From NCBI GenBank assembly GCA_964589815.1, contig CAZPUR010000003.1, forward strand, positions 42,554 through 106,553: 64,000 bases of DNA, given 5' to 3'. The position numbers were made by a program, and so were the translations under genes. This document shows, one piece after another, positions 5,988 to 56,773 of this stretch (position 1 is the stretch's first letter; every line of letters begins with the position of its first letter). The notes under the pieces are model-generated. The model saw nothing but the letters and a program-made list of their open reading frames with translations, was not told the DNA's origin and ran no database searches. Source of the DNA: an uncultured Pseudomonadales bacterium. Its GTDB lineage: Bacteria > Patescibacteriota > Microgenomatia > UBA1400.

Positions 5988-7475
5988 ATGATTAGAGCAT
6001 TTATTGAAAAGCACGAAAAAAAGGTTCATCGTCTTTTAGAAATTTTACCCGGAGTTTTCTCTTGGTCTTTAATTTTATTTCCTTTTTGGGGTTCTTTTGT
6101 GATCCCAGTAGTAGTCGCTTATTATATTATTGCCTTTGATGTTTATTGGTTTTACCGTTCGGCTTCGGTAATGTTTTTAGCCTTAGGATCATATTTTAAA
6201 ATTAGGGCTGCTCAAAGATATAATTGGATGAGCGATGTTAGAGATTTTGGTGACTGGGGTCGTGTTCATCATATCGTGGTGATTCCTACTTATCAAGAAC
6301 CCTTATACATTCTACGTCGGACTTTAACGGCTTTGAAAAATCAAACTTTTCCTACTAAAAAGATTTCTATTGTTTTGGGCTTTGAAAAAAGAGAAGGTCA
6401 GCCAGCAAGGAAAAAATCAAGAATTTTATCCCAAGAGTATAAAAATTTTTTTGCTAACCTTTTAACTACTTTTCATCCTGATATGCCAGGAGAAGTGAAA
6501 GGTAAATCTTCAAATATTGCCTATGCCGCCAAAATTGCCCAAAAAGAAATTGTTAATAGACAAAAGAAAAAGCTTGACTATATTTTAGTCACCTCAGCTG
6601 ATGCTGATGCTCGGTTCCACCAATCATATTTTGCCTGCTTGAGTTATAAGTTTTTAGATAATCCCCAACGTTATCATCTCATTTTTCAACCAGCAATTAT
6701 GTATTACAACAATATCTGGCGAGCACCTGCTCCGGTAAGGGTTTTTTCTAGTGCTTCAAGCCTGGTACAAACAGGTCTTTTAAATAGGAAAGATAGACTG
6801 ATTAATTTTTCTACTTACTCAACCAGTCTTAGGTTGGTTGAGGCGGTTGGTTATTGGGACGTCGACGTTATTCCTGAAGATTACCGCTTCTTTTTTAAAG
6901 CCTATTTTGCTTTAAAAGGCAAAGTAGAAGTAGAGCCAATATTCTTACCTGTTTATGCTGACGCGGTCCTTTCCACTTCTTTCTTAAAGACAATGAAGAA
7001 TCAATATGAACAAGTTAAACGTTGGGCCTGGGGAGTTTCTGATGACGCTTATATTATTAAAAAATGGTTAACTGTTCCCGGTTTGCCTTTCTGGGATAAA
7101 ACCTTAAGGGTTTTAAAAGTACTTGAGGATCATTTTTTGTGGCCGGTCAACTGGTTTGCCATCACCTTGGGAGCAACTTTGCCCCCCTTGTTAAACGAAG
7201 ATTTTGCCAGAACTATTATAGGTAAAAGATTACCTCAGACTGCTTCTTTAATCCTCAGTTTTTCTTTAATCGCTTTAATTATTGCTATTTATATTGATTT
7301 AAAACAACGACCCAAGATAGAAACATTGCCTTTCTGGCGTCGAATAGTGACACCCTTTGAATTTATTCTTTTACCAATAGTAGGGTTCTTTTTTACTGCT
7401 TTACCAGGATTAGATGCTCACACGAGGTTAATGTTGGGTAAGTATATTGAATATCGGGTGACAGAAAAAGTTTAG
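5988..7475 (+). CDS. membrane-bound family-2 glycosyltransferase, processive synthase type
   Basis: Multi-TM protein with GT2 core (VVIPTYQE, TSADADA) and Q-x-x-R-W-like motif QVKRWAWG. Confidence 0.75.
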   Translation: MIRAFIEKHEKKVHRLLEILPGVFSWSLILFPFWGSFVIPVVVAYYIIAFDVYWFYRSASVMFLALGSYFKIRAAQRYNWMSDVRDFGDWGRVHHIVVIPTYQEPLYILRRTLTALKNQTFPTKKISIVLGFEKREGQPARKKSRILSQEYKNFFANLLTTFHPDMPGEVKGKSSNIAYAAKIAQKEIVNRQKKKLDYILVTSADADARFHQSYFACLSYKFLDNPQRYHLIFQPAIMYYNNIWRAPAPVRVFSSASSLVQTGLLNRKDRLINFSTYSTSLRLVEAVGYWDVDVIPEDYRFFFKAYFALKGKVEVEPIFLPVYADAVLSTSFLKTMKNQYEQVKRWAWGVSDDAYIIKKWLTVPGLPFWDKTLRVLKVLEDHFLWPVNWFAITLGATLPPLLNEDFARTIIGKRLPQTASLILSFSLIALIIAIYIDLKQRPKIETLPFWRRIVTPFEFILLPIVGFFFTALPGLDAHTRLMLGKYIEYRVTEKV

Positions 7476-7492: not shown

Positions 7493-8812
7493 ATGAACCA
7501 ACTGACCACTTCACTTTGGGGAGATGAAAGTTTTACCGCCGTCGCCGTGCAAGAAAACTTCTTCCGGATGCTGGAAATTGTCATCAAAGATACGGCCCCG
7601 CCTCTTTACTATATCCTTCTTTTCATTTGGACCAGGATTTTTGGCCATTCAGAAGTAGCCATCCGGAGTCTATCAGTTTTACTTTATTTAGGGACGGTTT
7701 TTTTAGTTTACTTAATTGCCAAACATATTTGGCATAAAAAAGCGGGTTTATTAGCGGTTTTACTTTGTTTGGCCAATCCTTTTTTATTTCCTTTTGCTTT
7801 TGAAGCTAGAATGTACGCTATTTTGGTTTTTACCGTCACCTTGTCTTTTTACTTTTTTATTAAAAATAATTTTTGGGGCTATGTGTTAGGTTCAACCGCG
7901 GCCATTTATTCACACCACTATGCTGTTTTACCTTTAATTTTTCAGTTTGGCTGGAGATTATTTACTACTAAAAAAATAAAGAAAAATTGGTTTAGGTTTT
8001 TAAAACCATATTTATTTATTGGCCTTTTTTATCTTCCCTGGCTTTATCCTCTATATAAACAGGTAACCATGGTATCTGGAGGCTTTTGGCTGGGCAAACC
8101 AAAATTAATAGATCTCTTTGGGCTTTTTGTTAAATATTTAATTGGAGGGAATATTGTTTTTCAATGGCAGAAATATCTGTTGGTTTTGGCTGTTTTAATT
8201 CTAGTTTTGAAAAAATGGAAATTTAAACTTAAAGAAAATTCAATTTTAATTGGCTGGGTATTGGCTCCTGTTTTATTAGCCTTTCTTTTATCTCAGGGGA
8301 AAACCTCGCTTTTTTATGATCGCTATTTGATTTTTATCATTCCCGGATTAATGTTGCTTTTAACTGGGGGCTTAAGAAAAATCTCTCTAGTTTTAATTTT
8401 ATTATTTTGCCTGCCCTTATTTTATGTTAATTTTTATTATTTTAATCACCCCACTAAAAGACCTTTTCGTCAGTTGGTGGCCTATATAAAAAAAGAAATT
8501 AAAAAGGATGATTTTTTAATTAATTTTAATGGTGGAGCTCATCACTTGTGGGAAACAAAATATTATGGTCTTGAGGCTCCTTTATACGTTCCCGAAGGCG
8601 ATTTGCCCTTTTATGTAGGTACGGCTCAAATGAGTGATGAGGATATAATTCGTCAGCTGCCTGATAAGGAAAGAATAGGAGTGATTAGCAGCGAAGAACC
8701 TGAATCTATGCAAATTAATGGTTTTGCGTTAAAATCTTATCAAGAATTCGGAGAGCTTTCTTTTTCTTGGTTTTCGCGCCAAATGAGACTTGAAAAAAAT
8801 GGACAAGAATAA
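7493..8812 (+). CDS. GT-C fold glycosyltransferase (family 39 / ArnT-PMT-like)
   Basis: Polytopic membrane protein with an N-terminal loop DE motif (LWGDESFTAV), as in ArnT/PMT enzymes. Confidence 0.65.
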   Translation: MNQLTTSLWGDESFTAVAVQENFFRMLEIVIKDTAPPLYYILLFIWTRIFGHSEVAIRSLSVLLYLGTVFLVYLIAKHIWHKKAGLLAVLLCLANPFLFPFAFEARMYAILVFTVTLSFYFFIKNNFWGYVLGSTAAIYSHHYAVLPLIFQFGWRLFTTKKIKKNWFRFLKPYLFIGLFYLPWLYPLYKQVTMVSGGFWLGKPKLIDLFGLFVKYLIGGNIVFQWQKYLLVLAVLILVLKKWKFKLKENSILIGWVLAPVLLAFLLSQGKTSLFYDRYLIFIIPGLMLLLTGGLRKISLVLILLFCLPLFYVNFYYFNHPTKRPFRQLVAYIKKEIKKDDFLINFNGGAHHLWETKYYGLEAPLYVPEGDLPFYVGTAQMSDEDIIRQLPDKERIGVISSEEPESMQINGFALKSYQEFGELSFSWFSRQMRLEKNGQE

Positions 8813-10631: not shown

Positions 10632-11729
10632 ATGGCATTTTTTCCTTTATTGAAAATTTTTCTTTTTACCGCCTTAGTTTCTTTTTTTACCACCCCTTTA
10701 GTTATTCGGCTTTATAGTCGTTTTCATTGGTTAGACGACCCTAAAATCACCAAGAGAAGAAAAAATACTCATACTTATCCTGTCCCTCGCGGAGGAGGAA
10801 TTTCTCTTTTTTTAGCTGTTTTTTTAGCCTCTTTGATTTTTCTAAATCTAGACAAGCATTTATTGGGTATTCTGGCGGGAGCTTTAGTGATTCTCGCCAT
10901 GGGAGTTTTAGATGATATTTTTGACCTTAATCCTTATTTAAGATTAATCGGTGGTTTTTTAGCCGCCTTATGTGTTGTGGGTGCAGGTATTGGTATTCCT
11001 TTTATTACCAACCCTTTTAACGGTATTGTCAAACTGAATCAACCGCAGATACCTATTTTTATATTAGGAAAATGGCGGACGATTTGGGTTTTAGCTGATT
11101 TATTTGCTCTTTTTTGGATTAACTGGTGTATGAATTTTGTTAATTGGTCTAAGGGGTTAGATGGCCAACTGCCGGGCATTGTCGTGGTGGCGGCTTTAAC
11201 TATTAGTATTTTAAGTTTGCGTTTTAGTGCTGATATTACTCAATGGCCGGTAATTATCCTGGCTTTAATCACGGCTGGAGCCTATTTTGGTTTTTTGCCT
11301 TGGAATTTTTATCCCCAAAAAATTATGCCTGGTTATGGTGGCGGCGCCTTAGCAGGATATTTATTAGCAGTTTTAACTATTCTTTCGACCACCAAGGTGG
11401 GCACGGCCATGATGGTTTTAGGCGTGCCTTTAATTGATGCCGTTTATGCCTTGCTCCGTCGGCTTAAAAAAGGTAAGTCGCCGGTCTGGGGAGACAGAGG
11501 TCATCTGCATCATAAATTACTTGATTTAGGCTGGGGTAAAAGAAGAGTGGCTGTTTTTTATTGGCTAATTACTGCTTTTCTGGGACTACTGGCTTTAAAA
11601 TTGAATGCTCAGGCCAAATTTTATACAATAATTCTACTGGCTGTTTGTTTTGCTGGAGTAGTTTTATGGCTCAATTACCTTTCCTTATTTTTAAATCCGC
11701 CCGGCCGACGCAGTGGATTAAAAACTTAA
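10632..11729 (+). CDS. MraY/WecA-family polyprenyl-phosphate sugar-1-phosphate transferase (GT4)
   Basis: GVLDDIFDLNP and NFVNWSKGLDGQ motifs in a polytopic protein. Confidence 0.8.
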   Translation: MAFFPLLKIFLFTALVSFFTTPLVIRLYSRFHWLDDPKITKRRKNTHTYPVPRGGGISLFLAVFLASLIFLNLDKHLLGILAGALVILAMGVLDDIFDLNPYLRLIGGFLAALCVVGAGIGIPFITNPFNGIVKLNQPQIPIFILGKWRTIWVLADLFALFWINWCMNFVNWSKGLDGQLPGIVVVAALTISILSLRFSADITQWPVIILALITAGAYFGFLPWNFYPQKIMPGYGGGALAGYLLAVLTILSTTKVGTAMMVLGVPLIDAVYALLRRLKKGKSPVWGDRGHLHHKLLDLGWGKRRVAVFYWLITAFLGLLALKLNAQAKFYTIILLAVCFAGVVLWLNYLSLFLNPPGRRSGLKT

Positions 11730-14283: not shown

Positions 14284-17200
14284 ATGAGCCCTTATTTATC
14301 TGGTGCAAAAAGAACTTTCTTGGGTAAAAAATACAAAAAATTACCCGAACTTGATCTTTTGGAAGTTCAAAAAGAATCTTACCAACAGTTTTTGACTCAA
14401 GATATTAATAAATGCTTAGAAGAGATTTTCCCCATAGAAGATTTTACAGGTAAAAACTGGCTTTTAGAGTTTAAAGAATATTTTTTTGGCACCCCAAAAT
14501 ATAATCCCGAAGAGGCCAGAGAAAAAGGGCTTAACTTTGAGATTCCCCTCAAGATTAAAGTTACTCTTTTTAACAAACAGACCAAGGAAAAAGTCACAGA
14601 AGAAGTGTTTTTAGGCGATTTGCCGCAAATGACAGAAAATGGCACTTTTATTATTAATGGCATTGAAAGGGCAGTGGTTAATCAATTAGTGCGTAGTCCA
14701 GGAATTTTTTATTCGGGTGAACTTGACCCTTCTAGTAGCAGAATGTTTTATCGAGGTGAACTCCGTCCCCTTAATGGTTCTTGGTTAGAATTTGTGGTTT
14801 CTCATAATAACGTTTTGGTGGTGAAGATTGATCGCCGTAGAAAATTTGCCGCTACTACTTTTTTAAGAGCAGCAGGGATTTCAGAAGATGAAGAAATAAT
14901 TAATCTTTTCAAAGATGTAGATACCGATTCTAAGTATCAATATATTAAAACTACTTTGAGCAAAGATCCTTCCAAAAATACAGCAGAAGCTTTAGTAGAA
15001 ATTCACAAAAAAATGCGACCTTCGGAGCCAGCGGTGTTAGAGAATGCGCGGCAACTTTTTCGCAGTATGTTTTTCGACCCTCGCCGTTATAACTTAGGGA
15101 CAGTCGGACGTTTTAAACTCAATAAACGCTTGGATTTAAATATTGATGAAGATATAACTGTTTTAACTCAAGAAGACTTGGTGGCGGCTATTAAATATTT
15201 AATTAAGATTCAAAACAAAGAAGGCAGAGTTGATGATATCGACCATCTTTCAAACAGAAGAGTAAGAAGAGTAGGCGAGTTGGTTTTAGGCAATGCTTTT
15301 AGGATTGGATTAGTAAGGTTGGAGCGCTCTATCAGAGAAAAAATGAGCTTAGCTAAAATTGATTCTTTAGTAACCCCTTCAAGTCTTATTAATCCCCGAC
15401 CAATGATTGCCGTAATAAATGATTTTTTTAGAAGAAATAGACTTTCCACGATTTTAGACCAAACAAATTTACTTTCTGAATTAGACAATTTAAGGAGGTT
15501 TTCAGTAATGGGTCGAGGAGGAGTAACTAAAGAAAGAGCCTCCTTTTCTATGAGGGATATAAATTCTTCCCAGTATGCTCGGATTTGTCCAGTTAGGTCA
15601 CCGGAGGGGCCCAATATTGGTTTAGTTACTTATATGGCCCTTTATACCAGAGTAAATAAATATGGATTTTTAGAAGCTCCTTATCGTAAAGTAGAAAAAA
15701 ATAGTCGTAATGGCAAGACGAAAATGAAGGTGCTTAATGAAATTGTTTACCTTACAGCTGATGATGAGGAAAACTACTATATTACCCATGCAGAAGTAGA
15801 AATTGATAAAAATGGCTATATTATCGATGAATGGGTGCCAGTGAGATACAAAGGAGAATTTAAGGAGGCCCCCGTAACCCAGGTACAATTAATTGACTGT
15901 GTTTCTCGTCAAGTAGTGGGTACTTCTGCTTCTTTAATTCCTTTTTTAGCTCATGATGAAGCTAATCGTGCCTTAATGGGCACCCACATGCAATGTCAGG
16001 CAGTGCCATTAGTGAAGCCTGACTCTCCCATTATTGGTACTGGTATGGAAGAGGTTATTCCTCAAGCAATGAAGCGAGTAGTGAACTCTGATTTTGCGGG
16101 AAGAGTAGTTTATGTTGATGCTTCCAAAGTAATAATTAAGATTGACAAATCAGAGACAAAACGACTTAAGGAAAAACAAAATCAATTATCAAAATCAGTC
16201 AGTATTTATACTGATAAAGTAACATATAAAATTGAGAAATTTAGGCGCACTTCGCAAAGCACTTGTTATTCTCAAAGACCTATTGTTAGCGTAGGGCAAA
16301 GGATAAAAAGAAATCAAGTGATTATCGATGGACCTGCTTGTAAAGATGGTGAGCTAGCTTTAGGTCAAAATCTCTTGATTACCTATTCTTTTTTTGAAGG
16401 ATTAGGTTATGAAGACGCCATTATTATCTCGGACAGATTAGTCAAAGATGATAGCCTAACTTCTATTCATATTAATGAATACGAGGCAGCAGTTATGGAT
16501 ACTAAATTGGGCCCAGAAGAATTGACTCGTGATATTCCTAATATTGGTGAGGCAGATTTAGCTAACTTAGCTGAAGACGGAATTGTAGTTACTGGAAGTG
16601 AGGTCGGGCCTAATGATGTTTTAGTGGGGAAAATTGCCCCCAAAGGAGAAACGGAATTAAGTGCCGAAGAGAGACTCCTACGGGCTATTTTTGGGGAGAA
16701 AGCAAGAGAAGTAAGGGATACTTCTTTAAGAATGCCTCATGGAGAAAGAGGAATTGTTATTGACGTTCAAATTCTAGATAGAGAAAAAGATGATGAACTA
16801 GACCCAGGAGTTAATAAGTTAGTTAAAGTAAAAGTGGCTCAAATGAGAAAAGTAGTTGTGGGTGATAAGCTAGCTGGCAGACACGGGAATAAGGGAGTAA
16901 TTTCTAAGATTGTGCCCATGTCAGACATGCCCTATTTAAAAGATGGCACTCCAGTAGATATTATTATTTCTCCTCTTTCTGTTTTGGCCAGAATGAATCT
17001 AGGTCAGCTTTTAGAGGCTCACCTTGGTTGGGCAGCAGAAAGATTGGGTGAAAAACTAGCCCTACCAGTCTTTGAAAAATTTTCTGAAACAGAGATTAAG
17101 AAATATCTTAAAAAAGCTGGTTTGCCGACAGAAGGGAAGGTTCAACTTTATGATGGAAAGACAGGTGAGCCTTTCAAAGAAAAAACCGTGGTGGGGATTG

Positions 17201-26859: not shown

Positions 26860-26892
26860 AGAGAGTTTATAGTGTCGTTACGGAGCGAATTT

Positions 26893-26950
26893 GTCATTCT
26901 GGAGCGAAGCGATAGAATCCCTTGGGATCCTTTGCTGTGCTCAGGATGAT
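26893..26950 (+). repeat. head-to-head pair of GTCATYCTG-type repeats forming one long hairpin
   Basis: GTCATTCTGGAGCGAAGCGATAGAATCCC / GGGATCCTTTGCTGTGCTCAGGATGAT. Arm differences are mostly T-versus-C (G.U in the sense RNA). The 3' arm covers the ATG at 26946. Confidence 0.75.
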
Positions 26951-28262: not shown

Positions 28263-28609
28263 ATATCAATCAAGTTATTAAAAAACCACTAATTACAGAA
28301 AAAGCGATGGCGTTAGCTAAGGAGGGTAAGTATACTTTTATAGTTGATATCAAGGCTGATAAAAAAAAGGTTAAACAAGCCCTAGGAGTTTTATTTGGCG
28401 TTCAGGCAATTAAGGTTAATCTTTTAAAATATAAGGGAAAGAAAAAAAGAGCTTTTCGAATGCGCAAATTGATTAAAAAATCAGATTATAAAAAAGCAAT
28501 AGTGCAACTGAAAGAGGGTCAAAAAATAGAATTTTTTGAAGAAATTTCTGGAAAGAAGAAGGATAAATCCCGGCGCAAAGGCCGAGGATCGTCCTCTGGA
28601 CGAAAATGA
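28259..28609 (+). CDS. rplW: 50S ribosomal protein L23 (uL23)
   Basis: [11 protein letters not shown] start. ATGA overlaps on both sides. Confidence 0.93.
28587..28605 (+). repeat. GATCGTCCTCTGGACGAAA hairpin element forming the rplW tail and abutting the rplB ATG
   Basis: TCGTCC-TCT-GGACGA stem. Same core as 44211-44230 and 55047-55066. Confidence 0.7.
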
Positions 28610-29723: not shown

Positions 29724-29730
29724 AGGAGAA

Positions 29731-29834
29731 TTGTTACATTGTTACATTGTTACATTGTTGATAGTTTTTTGTAATACAAATCGGAAGGCTACTGTTAGCA
29801 ATGAAGCAATGAAGCAATGAAGCAATGAAGCAAT
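29731..29834 (+). repeat. foldback spacer: (TTGTTACA)x3 + TTGTTGAT on the 5' arm, (GCAATGAA)x4 on the 3' arm
   Basis: Units pair in register (per 8 nt: 6 Watson-Crick, 1 G.U, 1 A.A). Helix base at 29731/29833. Confidence 0.8.
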
Positions 29835-30221: not shown

Positions 30222-30222
30222 T

Positions 30223-30354
30223 GGAATTACAAATCACAAGCACCAAATATCAAATAAATTCAAAGCACCAAATTAAAAATTCTAAACGTTTTGAATTTAA
30301 AAATTTTAATTTGAATATTGTTTGGAGTTTGGAGTTTGGAGTTTGGAGTTTTCC
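30223..30354 (+). repeat. foldback spacer, ACCAAAT/ATTTGGT family copy C1, with (TTTGGAG)x4
   Basis: GGAATT..(A)GTTTTCC closing pairs, AAATTCAAA/TTTGAATTT core. Shares AATTACAAATCACAA (15 nt) with 33910-33924. Confidence 0.7.
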
Positions 30355-31028: not shown

Positions 31029-31068
31029 AAGTTGACTATCAATAAACAACTTAATCAACTAAAAAACA
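31029..31068 (+). repeat. short copy (3' part) of the TTAAGTAGTTGATTA...CTATCAATAAACAACTTAATCAACTAAAAAACA family
   Basis: 31035-31068 is identical over 34 nt to 33058-33091 and ends at the rplP ATG. Confidence 0.8.
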
Positions 31069-31718: not shown

Positions 31719-31797
31719 AAATAAGTTCAAAAGTTCATTAAGTTCATAGAGTTAATAGTAAAAAATTACTCATAACTTGTTGAGCTCATAACTAATT
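31719..31797 (+). repeat. foldback spacer, GTTCATTAAGTTCAT family copy A1
   Basis: Alignable to 34454-34547 and 41368-41463. Ends ...ATAACTAATT directly at the rpsQ GTG. Confidence 0.75.
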
Positions 31798-32025
31798 GTG
31801 AAACAATTAACCGGTACAGTTGTCAGCATTAAGATGCAAAAAAGTGCGGTGGTCAAAGTTGACAGAACCTACCGTCATCCTTTATATAAAAAAACCATTA
31901 AAAAAAGTAAAAAATATTTAGTTGATAATCAACTTAAGGTTAAAAAAGGAGATAAAGTGATTATTCAAGAGTGCCGGCCAATAAGTAAGAGTAAGAGGTT
32001 TAGAATCATTAGAGTTATTAAGTAG
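31798..32025 (+). CDS. rpsQ: 30S ribosomal protein S17 (uS17), GTG start
   Basis: LTGTVVSIKMQKSAVVKVDRTYRHPLYKK pattern. Confidence 0.93.
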   Translation: MKQLTGTVVSIKMQKSAVVKVDRTYRHPLYKKTIKKSKKYLVDNQLKVKKGDKVIIQECRPISKSKRFRIIRVIK

Positions 32026-32173
32026 TGTATTAAGTAGTTGATTAGGTCCGACGCGATGGTCGGACCGTTAACTGATAGTTAACTGATAGTTTCTACCCAG
32101 TCAACGCGAGTCCTGACGTTACGTCGGGGCGAGCTAGTTAACCATAAATTAACTACTTAATTGACTATAAACG
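32026..32173 (+). repeat. foldback spacer, TTAAGTAGTTGATTA family copy with nested GC hairpins
   Basis: ATTAAGTAGTT (32030-40) is complementary to AACTACTTAAT near 32147-57. Nested GGTCCGAC-N6-GTCGGACC (32045-66) and CCTGACGTTACGTCGGGG (32112-29). (TTAACTGATAG)x2. Confidence 0.7.
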
Positions 32174-32940: not shown

Positions 32941-33091
32941 GTGTTAATTAAGTAGTTGATTAACTCGTTAACGCTCGTGTTAATTAGGTAGTTAATTAAC
33001 TAGTTTAATATAGTCCTATCAATCAACATGATCCGCCAGCTGGCGGAGAATAAATTAACTATCAATAAACAACTTAATCAACTAAAAAACA
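32941..33091 (+). repeat. foldback spacer, TTAAGTAGTTGATTA family, full copy
   Basis: 33015-33089 is identical over 75 nt to 41177-41251. TAGTTGATTA (32952-61) pairs with TAATCAACTA (33075-84). Carries palindrome TCCGCCAGCTGGCGGA (33032-47). Confidence 0.85.
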
Positions 33092-33646: not shown

Positions 33647-33653
33647 GATAAAA

Positions 33654-33705
33654 GTGATTAGTCAAAAAAAGACTAATCACTAATCACTAATCACTAATCA
33701 CTAAA
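33654..33705 (+). repeat. 10-bp perfect hairpin (GTGATTAGTC-A7-GACTAATCAC) followed by (TAATCAC)x4
   Basis: The heptamer array 33674-33701 places TAA in all three frames just before the S14 start position. Confidence 0.8.
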
Positions 33706-33891
33706 ATCGCTAAAGTTTCTAAATTTGCTAAACAGCAAAAAAAACCAAAATTTTCTAGCCGGAAGCACAACCGCTGTAAAATTTGCGGTCGACCCAGGGC
33801 CTATATTAGGCTTTTTGGCCTTTGCCGTTTATGTTTTCGTCAAATGGCCCATAAAGGAGAATTACCAGGGGTAACTAAAGCCAGCTGGTAA
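33706..33891 (+). CDS. rpsZ: 30S ribosomal protein S14 type Z (uS14), apparent ATC start
   Basis: Absent from the ORF track. Own translation: (I)[60 protein letters not shown]. 61 codons, CxxC..CxxC, collinear with Zn-type S14. No ATG/GTG/TTG in frame after the stop at 33688-90. Confidence 0.85.
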
Positions 33892-34034
33892 GCTTTAAAG
33901 AAATGACCAAATTACAAATCACAAATTCCAAACAATATCAAAACACCAAATTCAAAATCCAAAACTGTTTTGAATTTGAATATTTGAATTTAGGATTTAT
34001 TTGTCATTTGGTATTTGGTGCTTGGAATTTAAGC
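33892..34034 (+). repeat. foldback spacer, ACCAAAT/ATTTGGT family copy C2
   Basis: Base pairs GCTT/AAGC (33892-95 / 34031-34), ACCAAAT/ATTTGGT (33906-12 / 34013-19), and further pairing along the arms by manual tracing. Confidence 0.75.
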
Positions 34035-34453: not shown

Positions 34454-34547
34454 ATAAAGAGAAATAAGAAAAGAGTTCATTAAGTTCATGGAGTTAATAG
34501 TAAAAAAAATTACTCATAACTCATAACTTGTTGAACTAATAACTAAT
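34454..34547 (+). repeat. foldback spacer, GTTCATTAAGTTCAT family copy A2
   Basis: GAGTTAAT/ATTACTC top stem and GTTCAT units opposite ATAAC units. Ends ...ATAACTAATT at the rplF TTG. Confidence 0.75.
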
Positions 34548-35102
34548 TTGTCTAAAGTTGGAAAGCAACCTATTAAAATACCCGAAGGAGTAACGGTTGA
34601 GATTAAACCTAGTCAAGTGATCGTTAGTGGTCCCAGGGGAAGTTTGACTCAGGAAATCAGGTCGGAGATAAAAGTTGAAAAAAAGGAAAACCAGATTTTA
34701 GTTCAACCAAACTCGCAAAGTAAACTGGTTAAGTCTTTACACGGTTTACTAAGAAGCCTGATTGCCAACATGATTCAGGGAGTGACTAAAGGTTTTGAAA
34801 AAACTTTAGAACTACAGGGAGTCGGCTACCGCGTCAATTTAGAACAGGAAAATTTAACCTTAGCTTTAGGTTTTTCTCATCCGGTAGTAGTTAAACCACC
34901 TGAAGGAATTAAATTTCAGGTAGAAGGCAATAATTTGATTAGAGTTTTAGGTATTGATAAACAATTAGTTGGTCAGATAGCCGCTGGAATTAGAAGGATT
35001 AGACCGCCGGACAGCTACAAAGGCAAAGGCATAAGATACGAGGGTGAAGTGATTAAGTTAAAGCCTGGCAAGGCGGCCAAGACAGAAGCAGCCGCAACAT
35101 AA
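34548..35102 (+). CDS. rplF: 50S ribosomal protein L6 (uL6), TTG start
   Basis: (M)SKVGKQPIKIPEGV is the canonical L6 N-terminus. Confidence 0.95.
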   Translation: MSKVGKQPIKIPEGVTVEIKPSQVIVSGPRGSLTQEIRSEIKVEKKENQILVQPNSQSKLVKSLHGLLRSLIANMIQGVTKGFEKTLELQGVGYRVNLEQENLTLALGFSHPVVVKPPEGIKFQVEGNNLIRVLGIDKQLVGQIAAGIRRIRPPDSYKGKGIRYEGEVIKLKPGKAAKTEAAAT

Positions 35103-38136: not shown

Positions 38137-38727
38137 ATGTACATAATTTTCTACGGTCCTGAAGGTTCAGGTAAAACCACCCAGGCCAAATTGCTGGCCG
38201 AAAAATTAAACCTGCCTTATTTAGGTTCAGGCGATTTAGTCCGCCATTATGCTGCCCGGGATAAAGGCATTATGGGTGATGTTTGCCGCGAAGCCTTATC
38301 CATCGGCCATTATGTGCCTGATTCAGAAATGTTTGTTTTATGGAAACAGCGTTTAAAAGAGTCGGATGTCCAAAGTGGTTGGATTTTAGATGGTTTCCCG
38401 CGCAACGACACTCAAGCAGATTTTTTAGATGATAAATTAGATAAATATGGAAAAAAAGTAGATGCGGTTTTTTATATCAAAGTTAAGGAGAGTACTTCGA
38501 TTAAACGTCTGACCAAACGCGGCCGCCGCAATCCGGATGGCAGTTTACATGATGATCCTAAAAAAGTCCGGGAGAGACTGCGGATTTATAAAAAGGGCGA
38601 AAAGGGTGTTTTAGATTTATATAAGAAAAGAGGCGTCTTGTATGCTATTGATGGCGAGCCCAGCATTGAGCAGATTCACAAAGAGGTTTTACAGAGGGTA
38701 GAAAAACTGACTCTGGCGTCATCCTGA
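38137..38727 (+). CDS. adk: adenylate kinase
   Basis: MYIIFYGPEGSGKTTQAKLLAEKL P-loop start. The caller's TTG at 38107 lies in the repeat arm. Confidence 0.92.
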   Translation: MYIIFYGPEGSGKTTQAKLLAEKLNLPYLGSGDLVRHYAARDKGIMGDVCREALSIGHYVPDSEMFVLWKQRLKESDVQSGWILDGFPRNDTQADFLDDKLDKYGKKVDAVFYIKVKESTSIKRLTKRGRRNPDGSLHDDPKKVRERLRIYKKGEKGVLDLYKKRGVLYAIDGEPSIEQIHKEVLQRVEKLTLASS

Positions 38728-38743
38728 GCGCAGCGTAGGATCT
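38718..38743. repeat. GTCATCCTGAGCGCAGCGTAGGATCT repeat overlapping the adk stop codon
   Basis: The adk TGA (38725-27) is the TGA inside the GTCATCCTGA motif. Confidence 0.75.
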
Positions 38744-38745
38744 AT

Positions 38746-39444
38746 ATGAAAATTCTTAAAAAAAACTTACAAATCGCTATTGATGGATTAGTTGGCGCCG
38801 GCAAAAGTGTCGGCGCTCATCGTTTGGCCCAACGTTTAGGGATTTTGTATGTTTATACTGGCGCCATGTATCGGGCGACTGCTCTTTTAGGCATTCAAAA
38901 CAACACTGATCTTAAAGACGAAGCCAAACTTATAGCTTTGTTAAAAAAAAGCACCATTAAACTAATGCCTGCTTCCAAAAAAAGCCGGGTTTGCGATGTT
39001 TTTATTGACGCTAAGGACGTGACCGATGAACTCTTTTCTTCTCAAGTGAATTGGGGATCTTCAGTCGTAGGTCTTTTGCCCAGGGTAAGAAAATATTTGG
39101 TTAAACTTCAGCAGGAAATTGCTAAAGGTCAGGCAGTGGTCATGGAGGGCAGAGATATTACCACCGTAGTTTTGCCCCAAGCTGACCTCAAAATTTTTCT
39201 GACAGCTGAGCTTAAAATTAGAGCCAAAAGAAGACTTAAAGACTTGCGCCAAAGAGGAGAAAAAAAGACCTTAGAACAAGTGATTGAGGAAACAGTTAAA
39301 AGAGATTACCAAGATTCGCACCGTCAAGCTGATCCCCTAAGAATTGTCAAAGGCGCTTGGGTTTTAGACACTAGCAACCTTACCATTGATCAAGAAGTAG
39401 ATCTGATGATCAAACGCCTAAAAGCCAAGAAACTAGTTAGTTAG
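38746..39444 (+). CDS. cmk: cytidylate kinase
   Basis: IAIDGLVGAGKSVGAHRLAQRLG and GRDITTVV motifs. Confidence 0.9.
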   Translation: MKILKKNLQIAIDGLVGAGKSVGAHRLAQRLGILYVYTGAMYRATALLGIQNNTDLKDEAKLIALLKKSTIKLMPASKKSRVCDVFIDAKDVTDELFSSQVNWGSSVVGLLPRVRKYLVKLQQEIAKGQAVVMEGRDITTVVLPQADLKIFLTAELKIRAKRRLKDLRQRGEKKTLEQVIEETVKRDYQDSHRQADPLRIVKGAWVLDTSNLTIDQEVDLMIKRLKAKKLVS

Positions 39445-39445
39445 C

Positions 39446-40246
39446 ATGAAAATTCCTATAAAAACTCCTCAGCAAATTCAAATTATGAAGCAAGGTGGCT
39501 ATAAGCTGGGTCGGATTTTAGGTCAGCTAGTTAAAATGGCCCAGCCTGGAGTTAACCTTTTAGATATTGAAAAAAAAGCGATGGTTTTAATTAAAAAAAC
39601 TGGAGGAGAAGCTGGATTTGCCCGGGTACCTAATTATCATTGGGCCACTTGCCTTAATATTAATGAGGAAATTGTTCATGGTGTTCCTAAAGATTATTTA
39701 CTTAAAAGCGGTGATGTTTTAAATATAGACATTGGTTTATATTACCGAGGCTTTAATACAGATATGAGCAGTACCATTTATATAAAAAATCCTCGTCATC
39801 CTGAACTCGTTTCAAGATCTATAAAAAAATTCCTTTCTACTGGTAAAAAAGCTCTCCAAGAAGCTATCAAACAAGCTCAACCTGGCAATCGGGTCGGTCA
39901 TATTTCCCAAAAAATTCAAGAGATTATAGAAGGAGCTGGTTATTCTTGCGCCCGTACTCTTACTGGCCATGGAATTGGCAAACAATTGCATCAGCCGCCT
40001 TCGATTCCCTGTTTTCTTAGGGATTCAATAGAAGAAACGCCCATTTTAAAAGAAAAAATGGCTCTGGCAATTGAGGTGATTTATTGTCTGGGAAAACCAG
40101 AGTTAGTGATTGATCCTCAAGATAGATGGACAATTAGAACCAAAGATGGTCGGTTAACGGCAGTTTTTGAAAAAACTATCGCTGTAACTGAAAAAGGGCC
40201 AGTAATTATCACTCCGTTTGAGGGAAAAGAGTCCCATAATATTTAA
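39446..40246 (+). CDS. map: type I methionine aminopeptidase with a 13-codon repeat-derived insertion
   Basis: VHGVP, DIGLYYRGFNTDMS, GHGIG and AIEV metal-site motifs. Confidence 0.94.
   Translation: MKIPIKTPQQIQIMKQGGYKLGRILGQLVKMAQPGVNLLDIEKKAMVLIKKTGGEAGFARVPNYHWATCLNINEEIVHGVPKDYLLKSGDVLNIDIGLYYRGFNTDMSSTIYIKNPRHPELVSRSIKKFLSTGKKALQEAIKQAQPGNRVGHISQKIQEIIEGAGYSCARTLTGHGIGKQLHQPPSIPCFLRDSIEETPILKEKMALAIEVIYCLGKPELVIDPQDRWTIRTKDGRLTAVFEKTIAVTEKGPVIITPFEGKESHNI
39781..39830 (+). repeat. GTCATCCTGAACTCGTTTCAAGATC element flanked by the direct repeat TATAAAAAA, in-frame in map
   Basis: Direct repeats at 39781-89 and 39820-28, period 39 nt. Encodes NPRHPELVSRSIK. Confidence 0.85.
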
Positions 40247-40283
40247 CAGAAGGTAGAGTTGGGATATAATATATTTTATTATT

Positions 40284-40454
40284 ATGGAAGAAAAGATAAA
40301 AATAAGGAGTTCCCTTACTCTTCATGCTCCAGAAGGTAACGTAAAAACAGTTCCTATAAGAGAAGGGGGTTTAAAATGGTTGGCCCAAGCAGCTGATAAG
40401 AGGATGCAAAGATTGCGTGATGAGGGGGCAACTCCTGAAAGCAATCCTTTTTAG
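40284..40454 (+). CDS. hypothetical 56-aa protein (possibly the 5' part of a frameshifted gene)
   Basis: Own translation MEEKIKIRSSLTLHAPEGNVKTVPIREGGLKWLAQAADKRMQRLRDEGATPESNPF. TATAAT at 40265-70 upstream. Below the ORF-track size cutoff. Confidence 0.4.
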   Translation: MEEKIKIRSSLTLHAPEGNVKTVPIREGGLKWLAQAADKRMQRLRDEGATPESNPF

Positions 40455-40498
40455 AAGATTTAAATAGCCTTATACATGTAAGTGGGCAGCCGTTTCCT

Positions 40499-40753
40499 TT
40501 GGAACCACTTGAACCCTCAGGGGAAGAGATATTTGTAGAGAAAGCAGTAAATATTGTTGGTGAAGTAATGGCAGTAATAGAATCAGTTGATGATTCAACT
40601 CTTCCTAAATGGCAAAGAGCGCTTTTAAAAACACCAGAAGGAGAAGAGCAACTTCGAGACTTAAAAATTCAGGCTTTTGACCAGATGGCTAGTTTAATTA
40701 GAGAGGGTCTTGGGCTTAGTGAAGGAGAGAGTATTTTGGAGCTGTTGGATTAA
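40499..40753 (+). CDS. hypothetical acidic 84-aa protein (frame is open upstream to 40443)
   Basis: ORF-track entry with a TTG start and no SD. Its frame is the -1 frame of ORF 40284..40454 and opens 12 nt before that ORF's stop. Confidence 0.4.
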   Translation: MEPLEPSGEEIFVEKAVNIVGEVMAVIESVDDSTLPKWQRALLKTPEGEEQLRDLKIQAFDQMASLIREGLGLSEGESILELLD

Positions 40754-40860
40754 GACTAATTATATTCAAGCTATCAGGCTAGACAATTAGAGCCACTTCT
40801 GATAAAATAACCCTGTTATTATAAACCATCGCTATTATGGTGATGGTTGTTTAGTTTTGC

Positions 40861-40889
40861 TTGTTAACAGGCTAATTTTTTGCTAAAAT
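40861..40889 (+). promoter_or_regulatory. putative infA promoter (TTGTTA, 17 nt, extended -10 TGcTAAAAT)
   Basis: The -10 ends 11 nt before the ATG at 40901. Confidence 0.5.
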
Positions 40890-40900
40890 AGTTTCAATTT

Positions 40901-41119: not shown

Positions 41120-41253
41120 ATATAGTTATTAAGTGGTTGATTAGCTCGCAACGCTCGCGTTAATTAGGTAGTTAATCCTATCAATCAACATGATCCGCCA
41201 GCTGGCGGAGAATAAATTAACTATCAATAAACAACTTAATCAACTAAAAAATC
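41120..41253 (+). repeat. foldback spacer, TTAAGTAGTTGATTA family, second full copy
   Basis: 41177-41251 is identical to 33015-33089. Lacks ~18 nt present in the other copy. Ends at the rpmJ ATG. Confidence 0.85.
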
Positions 41254-41367: not shown

Positions 41368-41463
41368 AAAAGAGAAATAAGAAATAAGTTCATTAAGTTA
41401 TTAAGTTAATAGTAAAAGAAAAAAATTACTAATAACCAATAACCTGTTGAACCAATAACTAAT
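41368..41463 (+). repeat. foldback spacer, GTTCATTAAGTTCAT family copy A3
   Basis: GTTATTA pairs perfectly with TAATAAC where copy A2 has GTTCAT/ATAAC with a bulged C. Ends ...ATAACTAATT at the rpsM TTG. Confidence 0.75.
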
Positions 41464-41883
41464 TTGCCTAGAATATCCGGGGTTAACTTACCAGAACAGA
41501 AAAAAATAAAAATTGCTTTACAAAGCATTTATGGTATTGGTAAAAAAAATAGTTTTTTAGTTCTTAATCAAGCCCAAATAGACCCGGAGAAAAGAACTGA
41601 AGATTTAAATGATCAAGATATGGTGAGATTGCAAAAAGCGGTCGAAGCCATTCCTATGGAGGGAGCTTTAAGGAAAGTGGTCATGGAGAATATTAAACGG
41701 CTTAAACAAATAAATACTTATCGAGGTTTAAGACATGTGGCCAACCTGCCGGTTCGAGGACAAAGGACTCGTGTTAACGCTAGAACCAAAAGGGGCAAAA
41801 GAGTTACTGTGGGAGCGATGAAAAAAGAATTAGCCCAAAAACTAGAAGGAGCCCGGAAAATTAAAGGCCAGGAGGAGAAATAA
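41464..41883 (+). CDS. rpsM: 30S ribosomal protein S13 (uS13), TTG start
   Basis: (M)[25 protein letters not shown] is the canonical N-terminus. Confidence 0.95.
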
Positions 41884-44197: not shown

Positions 44198-44200
44198 AAT

Positions 44201-44230
44201 CAGCCAGAGGCTGATCGTCCTTTGGACGAA
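44201..44230 (+). repeat. double-hairpin element CAGCCAGAGGCTGATCGTCCTTTGGACGAA abutting the rplM ATG
   Basis: CAGCC-AGAG-GCTG and TCGTCC-TTTG-GACGA. Near-identical copy at 55036-55066. Confidence 0.8.
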
Positions 44231-44644
44231 ATGAAAACAAAAATTACCAGAGCCAAAGACATCAAAAGAAGTTGGCACTTAGTTGATCTTGAAGGTCAAA
44301 TTTTAGGCAGGCAGGCCAGTAAAATAGCTCAACTTTTGATGGGTAAAAACAAAGTTTATTATACGGCTGCTTTGGATTGCGGTGACTATGTGGTAGCTAT
44401 TAACGCCGCCAAGATCCAAGTCACTGGTAGAAAAAACCAGCAGAAAATGTATTTCCGCCATTCAGGTTATCCTGGGGGTTTGAAAAAATTGACTTTTAGC
44501 CAGCTTTTAAAGAAAGATCCCAGAAAAATTATTGAATTGGCGGTCAAAAATATGCTGTCCAAAAATAAACTGCGGGACCCGCGTTTAGCTCGGCTCAAAG
44601 TTTTTCCTGGCCCAGAACATGATTATAAGGATAAATTTAAATAA
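44231..44644 (+). CDS. rplM: 50S ribosomal protein L13 (uL13)
   Basis: MKTKITRAKDIKRSWHLVD start. The caller's TTG at 44222 lies in the repeat. Confidence 0.94.
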   Translation: MKTKITRAKDIKRSWHLVDLEGQILGRQASKIAQLLMGKNKVYYTAALDCGDYVVAINAAKIQVTGRKNQQKMYFRHSGYPGGLKKLTFSQLLKKDPRKIIELAVKNMLSKNKLRDPRLARLKVFPGPEHDYKDKFK

Positions 44645-52137: not shown

Positions 52138-53216
52138 GAAGCTGAAATTTTTCCTCCCCCCAAACATAGCTTACCATCATAAAAAACGGCAAATTGGCCT
52201 GGAGTAATAGCTCTTTGAGGTTGATTAAAAACAAGCTTGAGTTGTTTATTTTGGGGAGGGTAAAGAACAGCTGGTTGTTCTTGGTGACCATACCTGATTT
52301 TTGCCCTTACTTTAATTGTTTTTATGGGTGTTTTTCCAGAGATAAAATTAAAAGGCGAAAGCTCTATTTCTTTTTGAAGCAAATCTTTTTCATTTTGAGT
52401 CACAATAACTTGGTTGTTTCGAGAATCCAGTTGTTTAACAAAATATGGTCCTCCGGAAAGACCAATTCTTTTTCTTTGACCAATAGTATAAAAATGTAAA
52501 CCCTGATGTTTACCCAAAACATTACCTTGAGTATTAATGATTTTTCCTGGTTTTTGACCCAGCCTTGTTTTCAAAAACTCAGTAATTTTTTTGCTCGGAC
52601 AATAACAAAAATCCTGACTTGACTTTACTATAATTGAACTGCGCCTGCCTGCCGGCAAGGCAGGGCCGCTATTAAATAATAGTAATTTTCTAGCCATTTT
52701 TATTACTTGTTTTTTAGTATATTCTCCTAAAGGGAAAACAATATGTTTTAATTGTTCCCGGGTTAAAAAAGAAAGATAATAGGTTTGATCCTTGGCTCTA
52801 TCCTTGGCTTTCAAGAGTTGATAGCTTTTAGCTTTTAGCTTTAAGCTTTCAGCTATTCTCGCGTAGTGTCCTGTTGCCACATAATTTATTTTTCTTTTTT
52901 TAGCCAATTCCAAAAGCTTTTTAAATTTAAGTTGGGGATTACAGATAATACAAGGATTGGGTGTCCGGCCATTTTTATATTCATTAATAAAATAATCCAC
53001 TACCTTTTGTTTAAATTCTTTTTTAACATCCAAAATATAATGGGGAATTTTTAACATTTGGCAGACTTTTTTTGCACTTGCGAAAGATCTTTTGTTTTGC
53101 CAGGCAGGGATATCTAAAGAAACGCCAATCGGCTCCCAACCGTGTTTTTTCAAAAAAAAAGCGGCCATGGAAGAATCAACTCCGCCAGATAGTCCCACAA
53201 TAATTTTTTCCTTCAT
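52134..53216 (-). CDS. mnmA: tRNA 2-thiouridine(34) synthase MnmA, with a GC-palindrome insertion
   Basis: VGLSGGVDSS PP-loop and NPCIICN motifs. Insertion GPALPAGRRSS at 52641-52669. Confidence 0.93.
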   Translation of the reverse strand: MKEKIIVGLSGGVDSSMAAFFLKKHGWEPIGVSLDIPAWQNKRSFASAKKVCQMLKIPHYILDVKKEFKQKVVDYFINEYKNGRTPNPCIICNPQLKFKKLLELAKKRKINYVATGHYARIAESLKLKAKSYQLLKAKDRAKDQTYYLSFLTREQLKHIVFPLGEYTKKQVIKMARKLLLFNSGPALPAGRRSSIIVKSSQDFCYCPSKKITEFLKTRLGQKPGKIINTQGNVLGKHQGLHFYTIGQRKRIGLSGGPYFVKQLDSRNNQVIVTQNEKDLLQKEIELSPFNFISGKTPIKTIKVRAKIRYGHQEQPAVLYPPQNKQLKLVFNQPQRAITPGQFAVFYDGKLCLGGGKISAS

Positions 53217-54993: not shown

Positions 54994-55035
54994 CTTGTAA
55001 TTTTTCCTTCTTTATGTTTCAATTTAATTAATTAT

Positions 55036-55066
55036 CAGCCAAAGGCTGATCGTCCTTTGGACGAAA
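55036..55066 (+). repeat. double-hairpin element CAGCCAAAGGCTGATCGTCCTTTGGACGAAAT upstream of recA
   Basis: Differs from 44201-44230 at one position in the first loop. Confidence 0.8.
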
Positions 55067-55092
55067 TTCTCCTGCCCAAGGAAAGGACTTTT

Positions 55093-56130: not shown

Positions 56131-56773
56131 GTTGCCAATTATTACTAAGCTTAAAAGTCAGAAGAATAGAAACAGGGTTAATTTATACTTAGATCATAAA
56201 TTTGCTTTTGGTCTAAGTTTAAATCAAGTAGTCAAATTAGGCCTAAAAACTGGTCAAGAATTGAACCAGGGTGAGGTAGAAAAACTTCTTTTCTCCAGTC
56301 AAGCAGAAAAGCTTTACCAGAAAACTTTAAATTTTCTTTCTTACCGCCCTCGGAGTGAAAAAGAAATAAAAGATTATTTAAGAAAAAATCTTAATAAATC
56401 GCCTCAATTATTAAGAAAAATCCAAACCAAAATCATTAAAAAACTTAAAAAACTTAACTTAGTTAATGATAAAGAATTTGCCCTCTGGTGGATAGAACAA
56501 AGGCTGAGTTTCAAACCTCGAGGCAAAAGAGGGTTAAAAGCGGAACTTTTCCAAAAAGGTGTAGACAGAGACATTATTGATTCTCAGATCAGCCAAATCA
56601 GCCAAATCAGCCAAATAAATTCTGCCAAAAAAATTATTACTAAAAAGAAGAAATTCTATCAAAATTTAGCTCCTCAAAAAATGAAACAGCGTCTTTTTGC
56701 CTTACTGGCTCGTCGGGGTTTTGACTTCGATACGATTAAAAGAGCGATTGACGAAGAAACAAAAAAAGAATAA
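56111..56773 (+). CDS. recX: recombination regulator RecX
   Basis: [20 protein letters not shown] and [12 protein letters not shown] repeat architecture. Start uncertain (GTG 56111 versus TTG 56054). Confidence 0.8.
56588..56614 (+). repeat. 3 x 9-nt perfect tandem repeat ATCAGCCAA inside recX (QISQISQIS)
   Basis: Read directly. Confidence 0.9.

Follow-up and report, generated by a model that had tools for sequence, protein, structure and literature searches.

Short direct repeats that run up to start codons have been described in a few bacterial groups, the nearest precedent being the TAACTGA heptamer repeats known from marine Beggiatoaceae and also from some cyanobacteria and Bacteroidetes (MacGregor 2015, PMC4679880). 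These comprise 169 sets, mostly in forward orientation, and the largest class ends 1 nucleotide (nt) before the start codon. Around 90% of the leaders are without a Shine-Dalgarno (SD) sequence, several are located in ribosomal-protein operons, horizontal or mobile spread is suspected, and translational control has been proposed (PMC4679880). In Nostoc PCC 7120, an array of eight GAC(C/T)AAT units overlaps the start codon of recO (bioRxiv 10.1101/2022.06.06.494920). Here, a comparable arrangement is described in a 64,000-nt stretch of DNA from an uncultured bacterium of the Microgenomatia (assembly GCA_964589815.1, contig CAZPUR010000003.1, positions 42,554 to 106,553, hereafter the window). 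The element, referred to as family A, fills three junctions of the ribosomal-protein gene cluster and leads directly into GTG or TTG start codons. The feature is real and statistically solid, and the comparative sequence evidence presented below supports the idea that it may act as a portable initiation region.

Family A is represented in the window by three alignable copies of 79-96 nt (repeat family D2), aligned end to end, each of which takes up all of the space between one gene's stop codon and the next gene's start codon. The window has a G+C content of 37% and carries fusA-tuf followed by the S10-spc-alpha ribosomal-protein cluster, which extends on the + strand from rpsJ (26505) to rpsI (45148). 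The copies and the starts that they adjoin are listed below, with hairpin z scores calculated against shuffled sequence.

31719..31797, + strand: family A copy A1, the whole rpmC-rpsQ intergenic region (covariance model R1, 75 bits; absent at this junction in 9 relatives)
31741..31786, + strand: A1 hairpin AGUUCA..GAGUUA..AGUAA / UUACU..UAACUU..UGAGCU, with two G.U pairs (minimum free energy -19.2 kcal/mol, z -3.8)
31787..31797, + strand: A1 tail CATAACTAATT, immediately 5' of the start codon and without an SD
31798..31800, + strand: GTG start of rpsQ (S17), the sole ATG/GTG/TTG following the in-frame TAA at 31789
34454..34547, + strand: family A copy A2, the whole rpsH-rplF intergenic region (covariance model R1, 96.8 bits)
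34458..34468, + strand: A2 5' box AGAGAAATAAG, directly 3' of the rpsH stop codon and common to A3 (family D15)
34474..34537, + strand: A2 main hairpin, AAGTTCA-type 9-mers against (TAACTCA) heptamers (-26.7 kcal/mol, z -5.1)
34538..34547, + strand: A2 tail AATAACTAAT, from the signature search
34548..34550, + strand: TTG start of rplF (L6), from codon search, orthologue alignment and Pfam
41368..41463, + strand: family A copy A3, the whole rpmJ-rpsM intergenic region (covariance model R1, 96.4 bits)
41371..41381, + strand: A3 5' box AGAGAAATAAG, directly 3' of the rpmJ stop codon (family D15)
41388..41452, + strand: A3 main hairpin (-16.4 kcal/mol, z -4.8)
41453..41463, + strand: A3 tail CAATAACTAAT, from the signature search
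41464..41466, + strand: TTG start of rpsM (S13), from codon search, orthologue alignment and Pfam

In the architecture that the copies share, AAGTTCA-type 9-mers make up the 5' arm and (TAACTCA)n the 3' arm, an A-rich loop separates the two, and a short tail ending in ...ATAACTAAT follows; tandem-repeat analysis resolved the arms of A2 as arrays of period 9 and period 7. All three end in ...TGTTGA-NNNN-ATAACTAAT(T), adjoining GTG, TTG and TTG, respectively, at the canonical first residue. The 20-nt 3' signature TGTTGANNNNATAACTAATT (TGTTGA-N4-ATAACTAATT) has exactly three occurrences in the 64 kb, each on the + strand and each terminating at a start codon, and it was matched in 0 of 100 shuffles. 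The organism is uncultured and all start sites were assigned by alignment, combining orthologue alignment and Pfam domains with a codon search of the stretch that separates the in-frame upstream stop from the conserved N-terminus. By this procedure, the GTG at 31798 and the TTGs at 34548 and 41464 are each the sole ATG/GTG/TTG from the in-frame upstream stop to the conserved N-terminus, and they match residue 1 of orthologues of products identified by Pfam as S17, L6 and S13. An SD, defined as at least 4 consecutive nt of AGGAGGT upstream of the start, was found at none of rpsQ, rplF, rpsM and rpsZ, while clear SDs precede tuf, rplR, rpsK, rpsD and rpoA elsewhere in the window.

The initial annotation of this DNA, made from the sequence, had already reported three alignable copies fused to GTG, TTG and TTG at the canonical N-terminus with no adjacent SD, and this observation stands. 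The 3' end that it quoted requires correction, as A1 in fact ends in CATAACTAATT followed by GTG, and the final T of ATAACTAATT in A2 and A3 already belongs to the TTG, as its first base. It also noted that rplV and rpsC start with TTG, which is correct (29835 and 30372); rpsC is nevertheless not an SD-less case, having the SD GGGAGG 5 nt upstream. The apparent use of ATC by rpsZ agrees with an open reading frame (ORF) that contains no ATG, GTG or TTG and has ATC (33706) at position 1 of S14. It could be argued that the true starts lie elsewhere and that the juxtaposition arose by chance, given that the starts were assigned by alignment and that ATC at rpsZ is unusual. Yet the ORFs hold no other ATG/GTG/TTG before the conserved N-terminal residues, which largely refutes such an artefact; the same sequence is present in independent assemblies, the exact window sequence being found in Joint Genome Institute (JGI) metagenome 3300031551 and run SRR9706179, and the 3' signature occurs three times against an expectation of 0. 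An annotation artefact is therefore hardly credible.

A fourth copy, A4, was obtained by scanning metagenome contigs for exact matches to the apical hairpin pattern (24 specified bases), which returned one further locus, in the source metagenome and its sister sample (contigs L022 and L021). Since this exact search gave only one further locus, family A seems to be either small or fast-diverging. A covariance model run over 340 kb of relatives likewise returned no further copy and only weaker relatives belonging to another family, family Z, treated below. The fourth copy ends in ...CATAACTAAT followed by TTG at residue 1 of YebC/TACO1 (MSGHSKWSTIKH), whose Pfam N-terminal domain begins at residue 5. 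The gene upstream is divergent, placing this copy in a 5' untranslated region, where initiation cannot rely on an upstream cistron; termination-reinitiation was accordingly rejected as the sole mechanism. The copy stands 3' of a promoter-like site, TTGAAT-18-TATAAT, with a TTTTGTCAAGAGG...TATAAT core common to relatives, and a mini-hairpin pair similar to one found elsewhere in the window (see below) is present 5' of it. L022 equals the window in G+C content (0.374), and the two samples that contain its yebC are those that contain the window secY, making it likely that both derive from one genome.

Across the four copies (75-105 nt, 23-25% G+C), 56 of 103 alignment columns are invariant, including the tail and several arm segments. 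The yebC leaders of relatives suggest where the cassette came from. In L033 there is no insert and ATG follows 10 nt past TATAAT, L035 carries an unrelated (TGTAAAA)n foldback and ATG, and L031 carries a different insert and GTG. The L029 leader ends in ...ATTACTAAT followed by TTG (CTAAT+TTG), and in L030 and L034 a (TAATTTC)n array leads into TAAT+TTG. CTAAT-TTG at yebC is thus common to four lineages, in two of which a (CTAATTT)n array terminates with it, and a single CTAATTT-type unit makes up the family A tail. It follows that CTAAT-TTG at yebC predates the family A hairpin. Given this and the matching unit type of the tail, the cassette, together with its TTG, may well have been copied into the operon from the yebC leader.

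The junctions were compared with those of ~15 related genomes. The window SecY is 72-76% identical to that of Beckwithbacteria/Shapirobacteria-type Patescibacteria metagenome-assembled genomes in a species-representative genome set, and the best identity, in a large protein collection, is 83% (L023, the closest relative compared). In these genomes, the rpmC-rpsQ, rpsH-rplF and rpmJ-rpsM junctions are 2-10 nt long and without family A, including in L023, which has ATG there; the rpsH-rplF junction measures 2-8 nt save in two genomes with unrelated inserts. The comparison shows that family A has taken the place of ancestral short TAA-N(2-8)-ATG junctions. Assignable starts in relatives were 8 ATG and 1 GTG at rpsQ, 9 ATG and 3 GTG at rplF and 10 ATG and 2 GTG at rpsM, with no TTG, and the GTG cases mostly have a strong SD or an unrelated insert. 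The proposed tie between the element and weak start codons is hence weakened for GTG, used at the same genes by some relatives without the element, and upheld for TTG. Within the window operon, non-ATG starts follow family A in 3 of 3 cases and occur at 3 of 30 other genes (p=0.004). Long junctions are also associated with non-ATG starts more generally, as given below.

15 genomes: 18/79 non-ATG starts at junctions of at least 40 nt, 22/254 at shorter ones (p=0.002)
Relatives only: 12/62 at junctions of at least 40 nt, 22/239 at shorter ones (p=0.04)
Window only: 6/17 at junctions of at least 40 nt, 0/15 at shorter ones (p=0.02)

Other repeat families at the junctions keep start codons of their own. 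Family Z, found at the rplE-rpsZ junction of the window, and family D1, with three window copies, are located as follows.

33647..33705, + strand: family Z cassette, a hairpin AGTGATTAGTC-A7-GACTAATCACT followed by an (AATCACT) array reaching the rpsZ start (ACTAATC x4.7, 100% matches; z -6.5)
33706..33708, + strand: ATC, apparent start of rpsZ (S14), the ORF having no ATG/GTG/TTG
33011-33091 (rplE), 41173-41253 (rpmJ) and 31029-31068 (rplP, tail only): family D1, a GC mini-hairpin CCGCCAGCTGGCGG plus tail

In L024 (80% SecY identity), a cassette at the rplV-rpsC junction, running from the upstream TAG stop to the start, is identical to the window rpsZ cassette in most aligned columns and leads into TTG. 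L028 carries a related hairpin at secY-adk, followed by (ACTTATC)4, ACTAAC and TTG at adk residue 1; adk begins with ATG in the window, as it does in all other relatives with an assignable start. Family Z is consequently seen at three junctions in three genomes and always with a non-ATG start: ATC at rpsZ in the window, TTG at rpsC in L024 and TTG at adk in L028. L024 moreover has a three-copy family of its own (about 7251-7322, 7933-8011 and 15404-15478), ending in ...GAGGGAAC with TTG at rpsZ, ...GAGGGAAG with GTG at rplF and ...GAGGAAAC with GTG at rpsD; this family ends in TTAAATTTGACCGAGCGAAAGCGAGGGAAC and carries an SD-like GAGGG. Family D1 ends in ...CAACTAAAAAA(CA/TC) followed by ATG at rplP, rplE and rpmJ, its A/C-rich 45-nt tail AATAAATTAACTATCAATAAACAACTTAATCAACTAAAAAA(CA/TC) adjoining the ATG without an SD and with a predicted accessibility of 0.58-0.72. 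The split by family, non-ATG in 4 of 4 family A copies and ATG in 3 of 3 D1 copies, is significant (Fisher p=0.029). The start codon thus travels with the cassette family. These comparisons place family A in a wider class of foldback and short-tandem-repeat inserts that have spread into junctions and 5' leaders in this Microgenomates clade.

Such inserts might instead be made where they stand, through local slippage and template switching at AT-rich junctions, with weak starts resulting from raised mutation or relaxed selection and with the apparent families being convergent or gene-converted. Almost all junctions of the window operon carry a foldback made of their own distinct 7-9 nt tandem units, the same yebC position has received a different insert in each lineage, heptamer number differs between copies, arrays also occur in-frame within genes, and the TTG of L030 and L034 is the last, one-base-different unit of the (TAATTTC)n array. 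However, family A copies of 75-105 nt share the 56 invariant columns at four unrelated loci, and the family Z cassette is mostly identical in two genomes at different junctions. Local slippage cannot make one long sequence recur at unrelated loci, so that copying from site to site must have played some part, and an origin purely in situ is rather unlikely.

The junction foldbacks themselves vary. At the rpsS-rplV junction (29724-29834), a (ATTGTTAC)3.8 ... (AGCAATGA)4.8 foldback is predicted at -36.7 kcal/mol in the sense and -15.4 kcal/mol in the antisense orientation, and the SD-less TTG of rplV (29835) comes immediately after the (AGCAATGA)4.8 array, which contains overlapping ATGAAGCAATGA mini-ORFs with ATGA start/stop overlaps. 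The rplV-rpsC foldback gives -38.0 kcal/mol sense and -24.1 kcal/mol antisense. The far greater stability of both foldbacks as sense strands reflects G.U pairs and hence suggests structure at the RNA level. Foldbacks before rpsC (30222-30345) and rpsH (33899-34030) share ACAAATCACAA, CACCAAAT and GTTTTGAATTT, and their 3' arms consist of (GTTTGGA)/(TATTTGG) heptamers.

All three window copies of family A are predicted to fold into AT-rich hairpins significantly more stable than shuffled sequence, as listed above, and the fourth copy hairpin has a z score of -4.1. In A2, the 5' box AGAGAAATAAG is predicted to pair with CUAAUUUGUCU, a segment that contains the start of rplF, and in both A2 and A3 the start codon is predicted to be paired with the AGAGAAAUAAG box just 3' of the upstream stop codon; the basal stem of A2 is present in both minimum-free-energy and centroid predictions. 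The compensatory arm changes claimed in the initial annotation did not survive inclusion of the fourth copy, since none of the 19 pairs covaries in the four-copy alignment, and the example drawn from A2 and A3 fails because the fourth copy joins an A3-type 5' arm to an A2-type 3' arm, breaking the proposed G-C to U-A swap. The tail, described there as unstructured, is A/U-rich yet predicted to be less accessible than average: the mean unpaired probability from -15 to +6 is 0.35-0.41 at rpsQ, rplF and rpsM, compared with an operon median of ~0.51 and the 0.58-0.72 of D1-led genes. The notion of a portable initiation region thus draws support from the fourth copy at yebC, the TTG-free relatives and the family-specific starts, and loses its unstructured component.

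The invariance of the tail and of several arm segments, together with known targets that are all translation- or growth-related, could point to a shared cis-regulatory RNA, that is, a site for a trans-acting factor (S1, a cold-shock, CsrA-like or ribosomal protein) co-regulating S17, L6, S13 and YebC, and perhaps S14 and Adk, as has been proposed for the TAACTGA repeats (PMC4679880) and the Nostoc heptamers. Most junctions in the data come from a single operon, however, and three of the four copies are situated in it, which means that the regulon may reflect sampling; covariation and an Rfam match are lacking, the element is not conserved in relatives at 83% SecY identity, and a regulator site would be expected to persist longer. 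This is regarded as quite unlikely.

A role in mRNA processing or stability may also be considered, in which the foldbacks are sites for RNase III or another nuclease, or protective stem-loops, that segment the ribosomal-protein mRNA, the fusion to start codons being incidental. Long imperfect duplexes are present at nearly all junctions, and those of rpsS-rplV and rplV-rpsC are much stabler as sense RNA; co-transcribed Correia elements of Neisseria are cleaved by RNase III. On the other hand, sense/antisense asymmetry as a test for RNA structure was inconsistent for family A, with the A3 minus strand folding better (-24.9). The processing account does not say why the tail is invariant, why the element abuts the start exactly or why start codons are family-specific, and relatives do without these hairpins. 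It is accordingly judged improbable.

Comparison with described repeats helps to delimit family A. As with the TAACTGA repeats, TAA-rich tandem heptamers in forward orientation reach the start codon, replace the SD region and occur in ribosomal-protein operons; the ACTAATT unit of the tail reaches or runs into the start in 4 of 4 family A copies, and family Z arrays end 0-2 nt before it in three genomes. The units differ, being TAACTCA (2.4 copies in A2, 4 in A4), ACTAATC (x4.7) and CTAATTT, while TAACTGA itself is found in the window only within two copies of the 11-mer GTTAACTGATA (32067-32091). In addition, the array here is paired with a complementary repeat arm in a long hairpin, four copies were found as against 169 sets, the host belongs to the candidate phyla radiation (CPR), and the arrays lead into non-ATG starts, a link absent from PMC4679880. 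Family A therefore has its nearest precedent in TAACTGA-type heptamer repeats, to which the foldback arm and the non-ATG link are additions. The Nostoc heptamers resemble it in sequence (GACTAAT compared with ACTAAT[C/T]), in overlapping the start, in having a non-canonical or distant SD and in their suspected translational role, but they lie in a cyanobacterial promoter or leader with reported effects on LexA and NtcA binding, have no foldback partner, and show no sign of having been copied from gene to gene along with a start codon.

Among mobile repeats, miniature inverted-repeat transposable elements (MITEs) such as Correia/NEMIS, as well as ERIC, RPE and BOX, are likewise short non-coding foldbacks that differ in presence among relatives and lie in operon intergenic regions (PMC3184786). 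Some co-transcribed palindromic repeats provide expression signals, and RPEs insert in-frame in genes (PMC3184786), just as small repeats occur in-frame in ORFs of the window. Family A shows the foldback terminal inverted repeats of a MITE (AGTTCA...TGAACT outer pairs and a 19-pair consensus stem), together with empty sites in ~15 relatives and four copies at four loci. It departs from MITEs in that its arms are tandem 7-9-mers of variable number and in that the unit runs exactly from stop to start codon, start included. REP/BIME elements were ruled out, family A being 75-105 nt, 23-25% G+C and untagged as opposed to a G+C-rich palindrome of 20-40 bp with a GTAG or CGTC tetranucleotide tag.

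Several further identities were rejected. A search of the whole window against all Rfam families gave no match at the gathering threshold, and family A is thus not a known ribosomal-protein leader or riboswitch; an autoregulatory leader like those of S8/spc, S4/alpha and L4/S10, in which a gene-specific structure mimics the rRNA site, is further excluded by the same element preceding three ribosomal-protein genes as well as yebC and by its absence in close relatives. No terminator-like call fell on any family A copy. An internal promoter was discounted, as only A3 has a 9/12 promoter-like match and shuffled sequence yields more such sites in the scan than the real sequence does. The TAA of the tail does not close a short upstream ORF, since an in-frame TGA lies 12 nt upstream.

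With the alternatives weighed, family A is considered with moderate confidence to be a junction cassette, specific to this lineage and spread by copy and paste, that brings a weak start codon with it and supports SD-free initiation. The cassette would be transcribed within the mRNA, and the hairpin would fold most of the insert away, leaving the ribosome to start independently of an SD on the A/U-rich ...ACUAAU-UUG end, possibly helped by the U at -1 and by ribosomal protein S1 or a factor of that kind. Terminating ribosomes probably also assist initiation in the three operon copies, because the basal fold sets the upstream stop beside the start codon; in A2 and A3, this fold may mask the start until the stop-proximal strand is unwound. 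Both modes have counterparts elsewhere, namely SD-independent initiation on A/U-rich leaders, as in Escherichia coli rpsA, and unmasking of starts by an upstream ribosome (PMC12548453). Like the rpsA leader, family A has no SD and places an A/U-rich single strand between its hairpin(s) and the start, and, as in structure-mediated coupling, the A2 and A3 starts are predicted to pair with sequence that a terminating upstream ribosome would unwind. SD-independent initiation and coupling are nevertheless mechanisms and not sequence families, unlike family A. Retention of a canonical anti-SD is assumed for the window organism from its report in Microgenomates (PMC9297842). The element may mainly be a tolerated selfish or slippage-driven insert that survives by supplying a working initiation site, and the cassette is probably not a dedicated regulator. 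The suggestion that weak starts tune ribosomal-protein stoichiometry or enforce coupling is compatible with the data, but so, equally, is the neutral tolerance of an insert that is selfish or generated by slippage. In model bacteria, UUG is expected to initiate weakly when no SD precedes it.

A stronger proposal holds that the cassettes are mobile initiation modules that overwrite the ribosome-binding site and ATG and establish a UUG/GUG/AUC SD-free mode through the ...ACUAAU tail, by way of a dedicated RNA-binding factor or rRNA contact, with S17, L6, S13, S14, YebC and Adk as a regulon; this is thought unlikely.

A number of observations weigh against reading family A as a copied initiation cassette. 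Four copies are known in total, and the link of L022 to the window depends on shared samples, identical G+C content and tetranucleotide similarity. The start sites of S17, L6, S13 and YebC come from alignment, and GTG at the same genes in some element-free relatives means that weak starts are not unique to the cassette. RNAalifold on the four copies gave 19 pairs with none changed on both sides and a covariation term of +0.81, and the heptamer number of the 3' arm ranges from 1 to 4 without a matching change in the 5' arm; with arm repeats uncoordinated and covariation lacking, the hairpin may not be under structural selection. The tail is not predicted to be especially accessible, and heptamer arrays are also found in-frame in coding regions, which fits a general mutational process. 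Finally, the ends show no convincing target-site duplication, A-rich similarities of 4-5 nt (AATAA) near both being indistinguishable from composition, and no transposase turned up in the 64 kb and the fragments, in which no search for one was made.

Other repeats accompany these families. A CGTC-type mini-hairpin, (C)GTCCT(C/T)TGGACGAA, which is a separate family from A, is present at 28591-28604, 44217-44230 and 55052-55065 (three seen, 0.02 expected) and ends 0-1 nt before ATG twice, at rplB and rplM; these may be CGTC-tagged REP-like repeats (compare PMC3733652). A second mini-hairpin, ATCAGCC-ARA-GGCTGAT, precedes two of the copies (44199-44232 and 55034-55067), and this is the pair resembled by that in the L022 yebC leader. 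In-frame arrays inside ORFs, which include TatD-like and holB-like genes, were seen at 5349-5381 (AGAATTA x4.7), 5603-5655 (ATTGGAA around a GC palindrome), 52822-52854 (TAGCTTT x4.7), 56588-56616 (ATCAGCCAA x3.2) and L022 3366-3395 (ACTTATC x3), and are reminiscent of the in-frame palindromic elements of Rickettsia. Small palindromes of the CGTCATCCTGAGCGCAGCGTAGGATCT type are located at the end of adk (38717-38755) and inside map (39794-39832), with a counterpart at the adk-cmk junction of L023, and another, GTCATTCTGGAGCGAAGCGATAGAATCCC, is found upstream of rplC (26875-26921). Inspection by eye of L023 also revealed apparent reverse-complement copies of an AT-rich (AATTAGA/AATTAAA-repeat) sequence at secY-adk (5200-5323) and rplM-rpsI (11159-11262), followed by ATG. 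The map-infA spacer (40247-40900) is unusually long and does not encode a ribosomal protein; it carries two small ORFs of 56 and 84 amino acids, called on contig L019 and without a Pfam match, a promoter-like TTAACA-16-TATAAT (40243-40270) and a terminator-like hairpin (40824-40848). Several short-read contigs (L030, L034, L036 and L037) break inside repeat arrays.

Such leaders also affect gene annotation. In the JGI annotation of L019, which equals the window from 31759 onwards, rpsZ is uncalled between genes 1334-1888 and 2297-2695 because it has no canonical start, and the yebC homologue P0124 was given 29 false residues at its N-terminus, the ...ATAACTAAT tail being translated as ...ITN. 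If the cassette interpretation is correct, it would bear on how gene callers treat these leaders and on the role of the long-unexplained start-codon heptamer arrays of Beggiatoaceae and cyanobacteria. The cassette, at ~100 nt plus TTG, offers a compact and testable construct for SD-independent initiation, and it would bear on SD-free translation start in CPR bacteria, which have unusual ribosomes and have not yet been grown alone. A small repeat would, in that case, have rewritten the ribosome-binding site and start codon of essential, highly expressed genes, a change that the cell tolerates.

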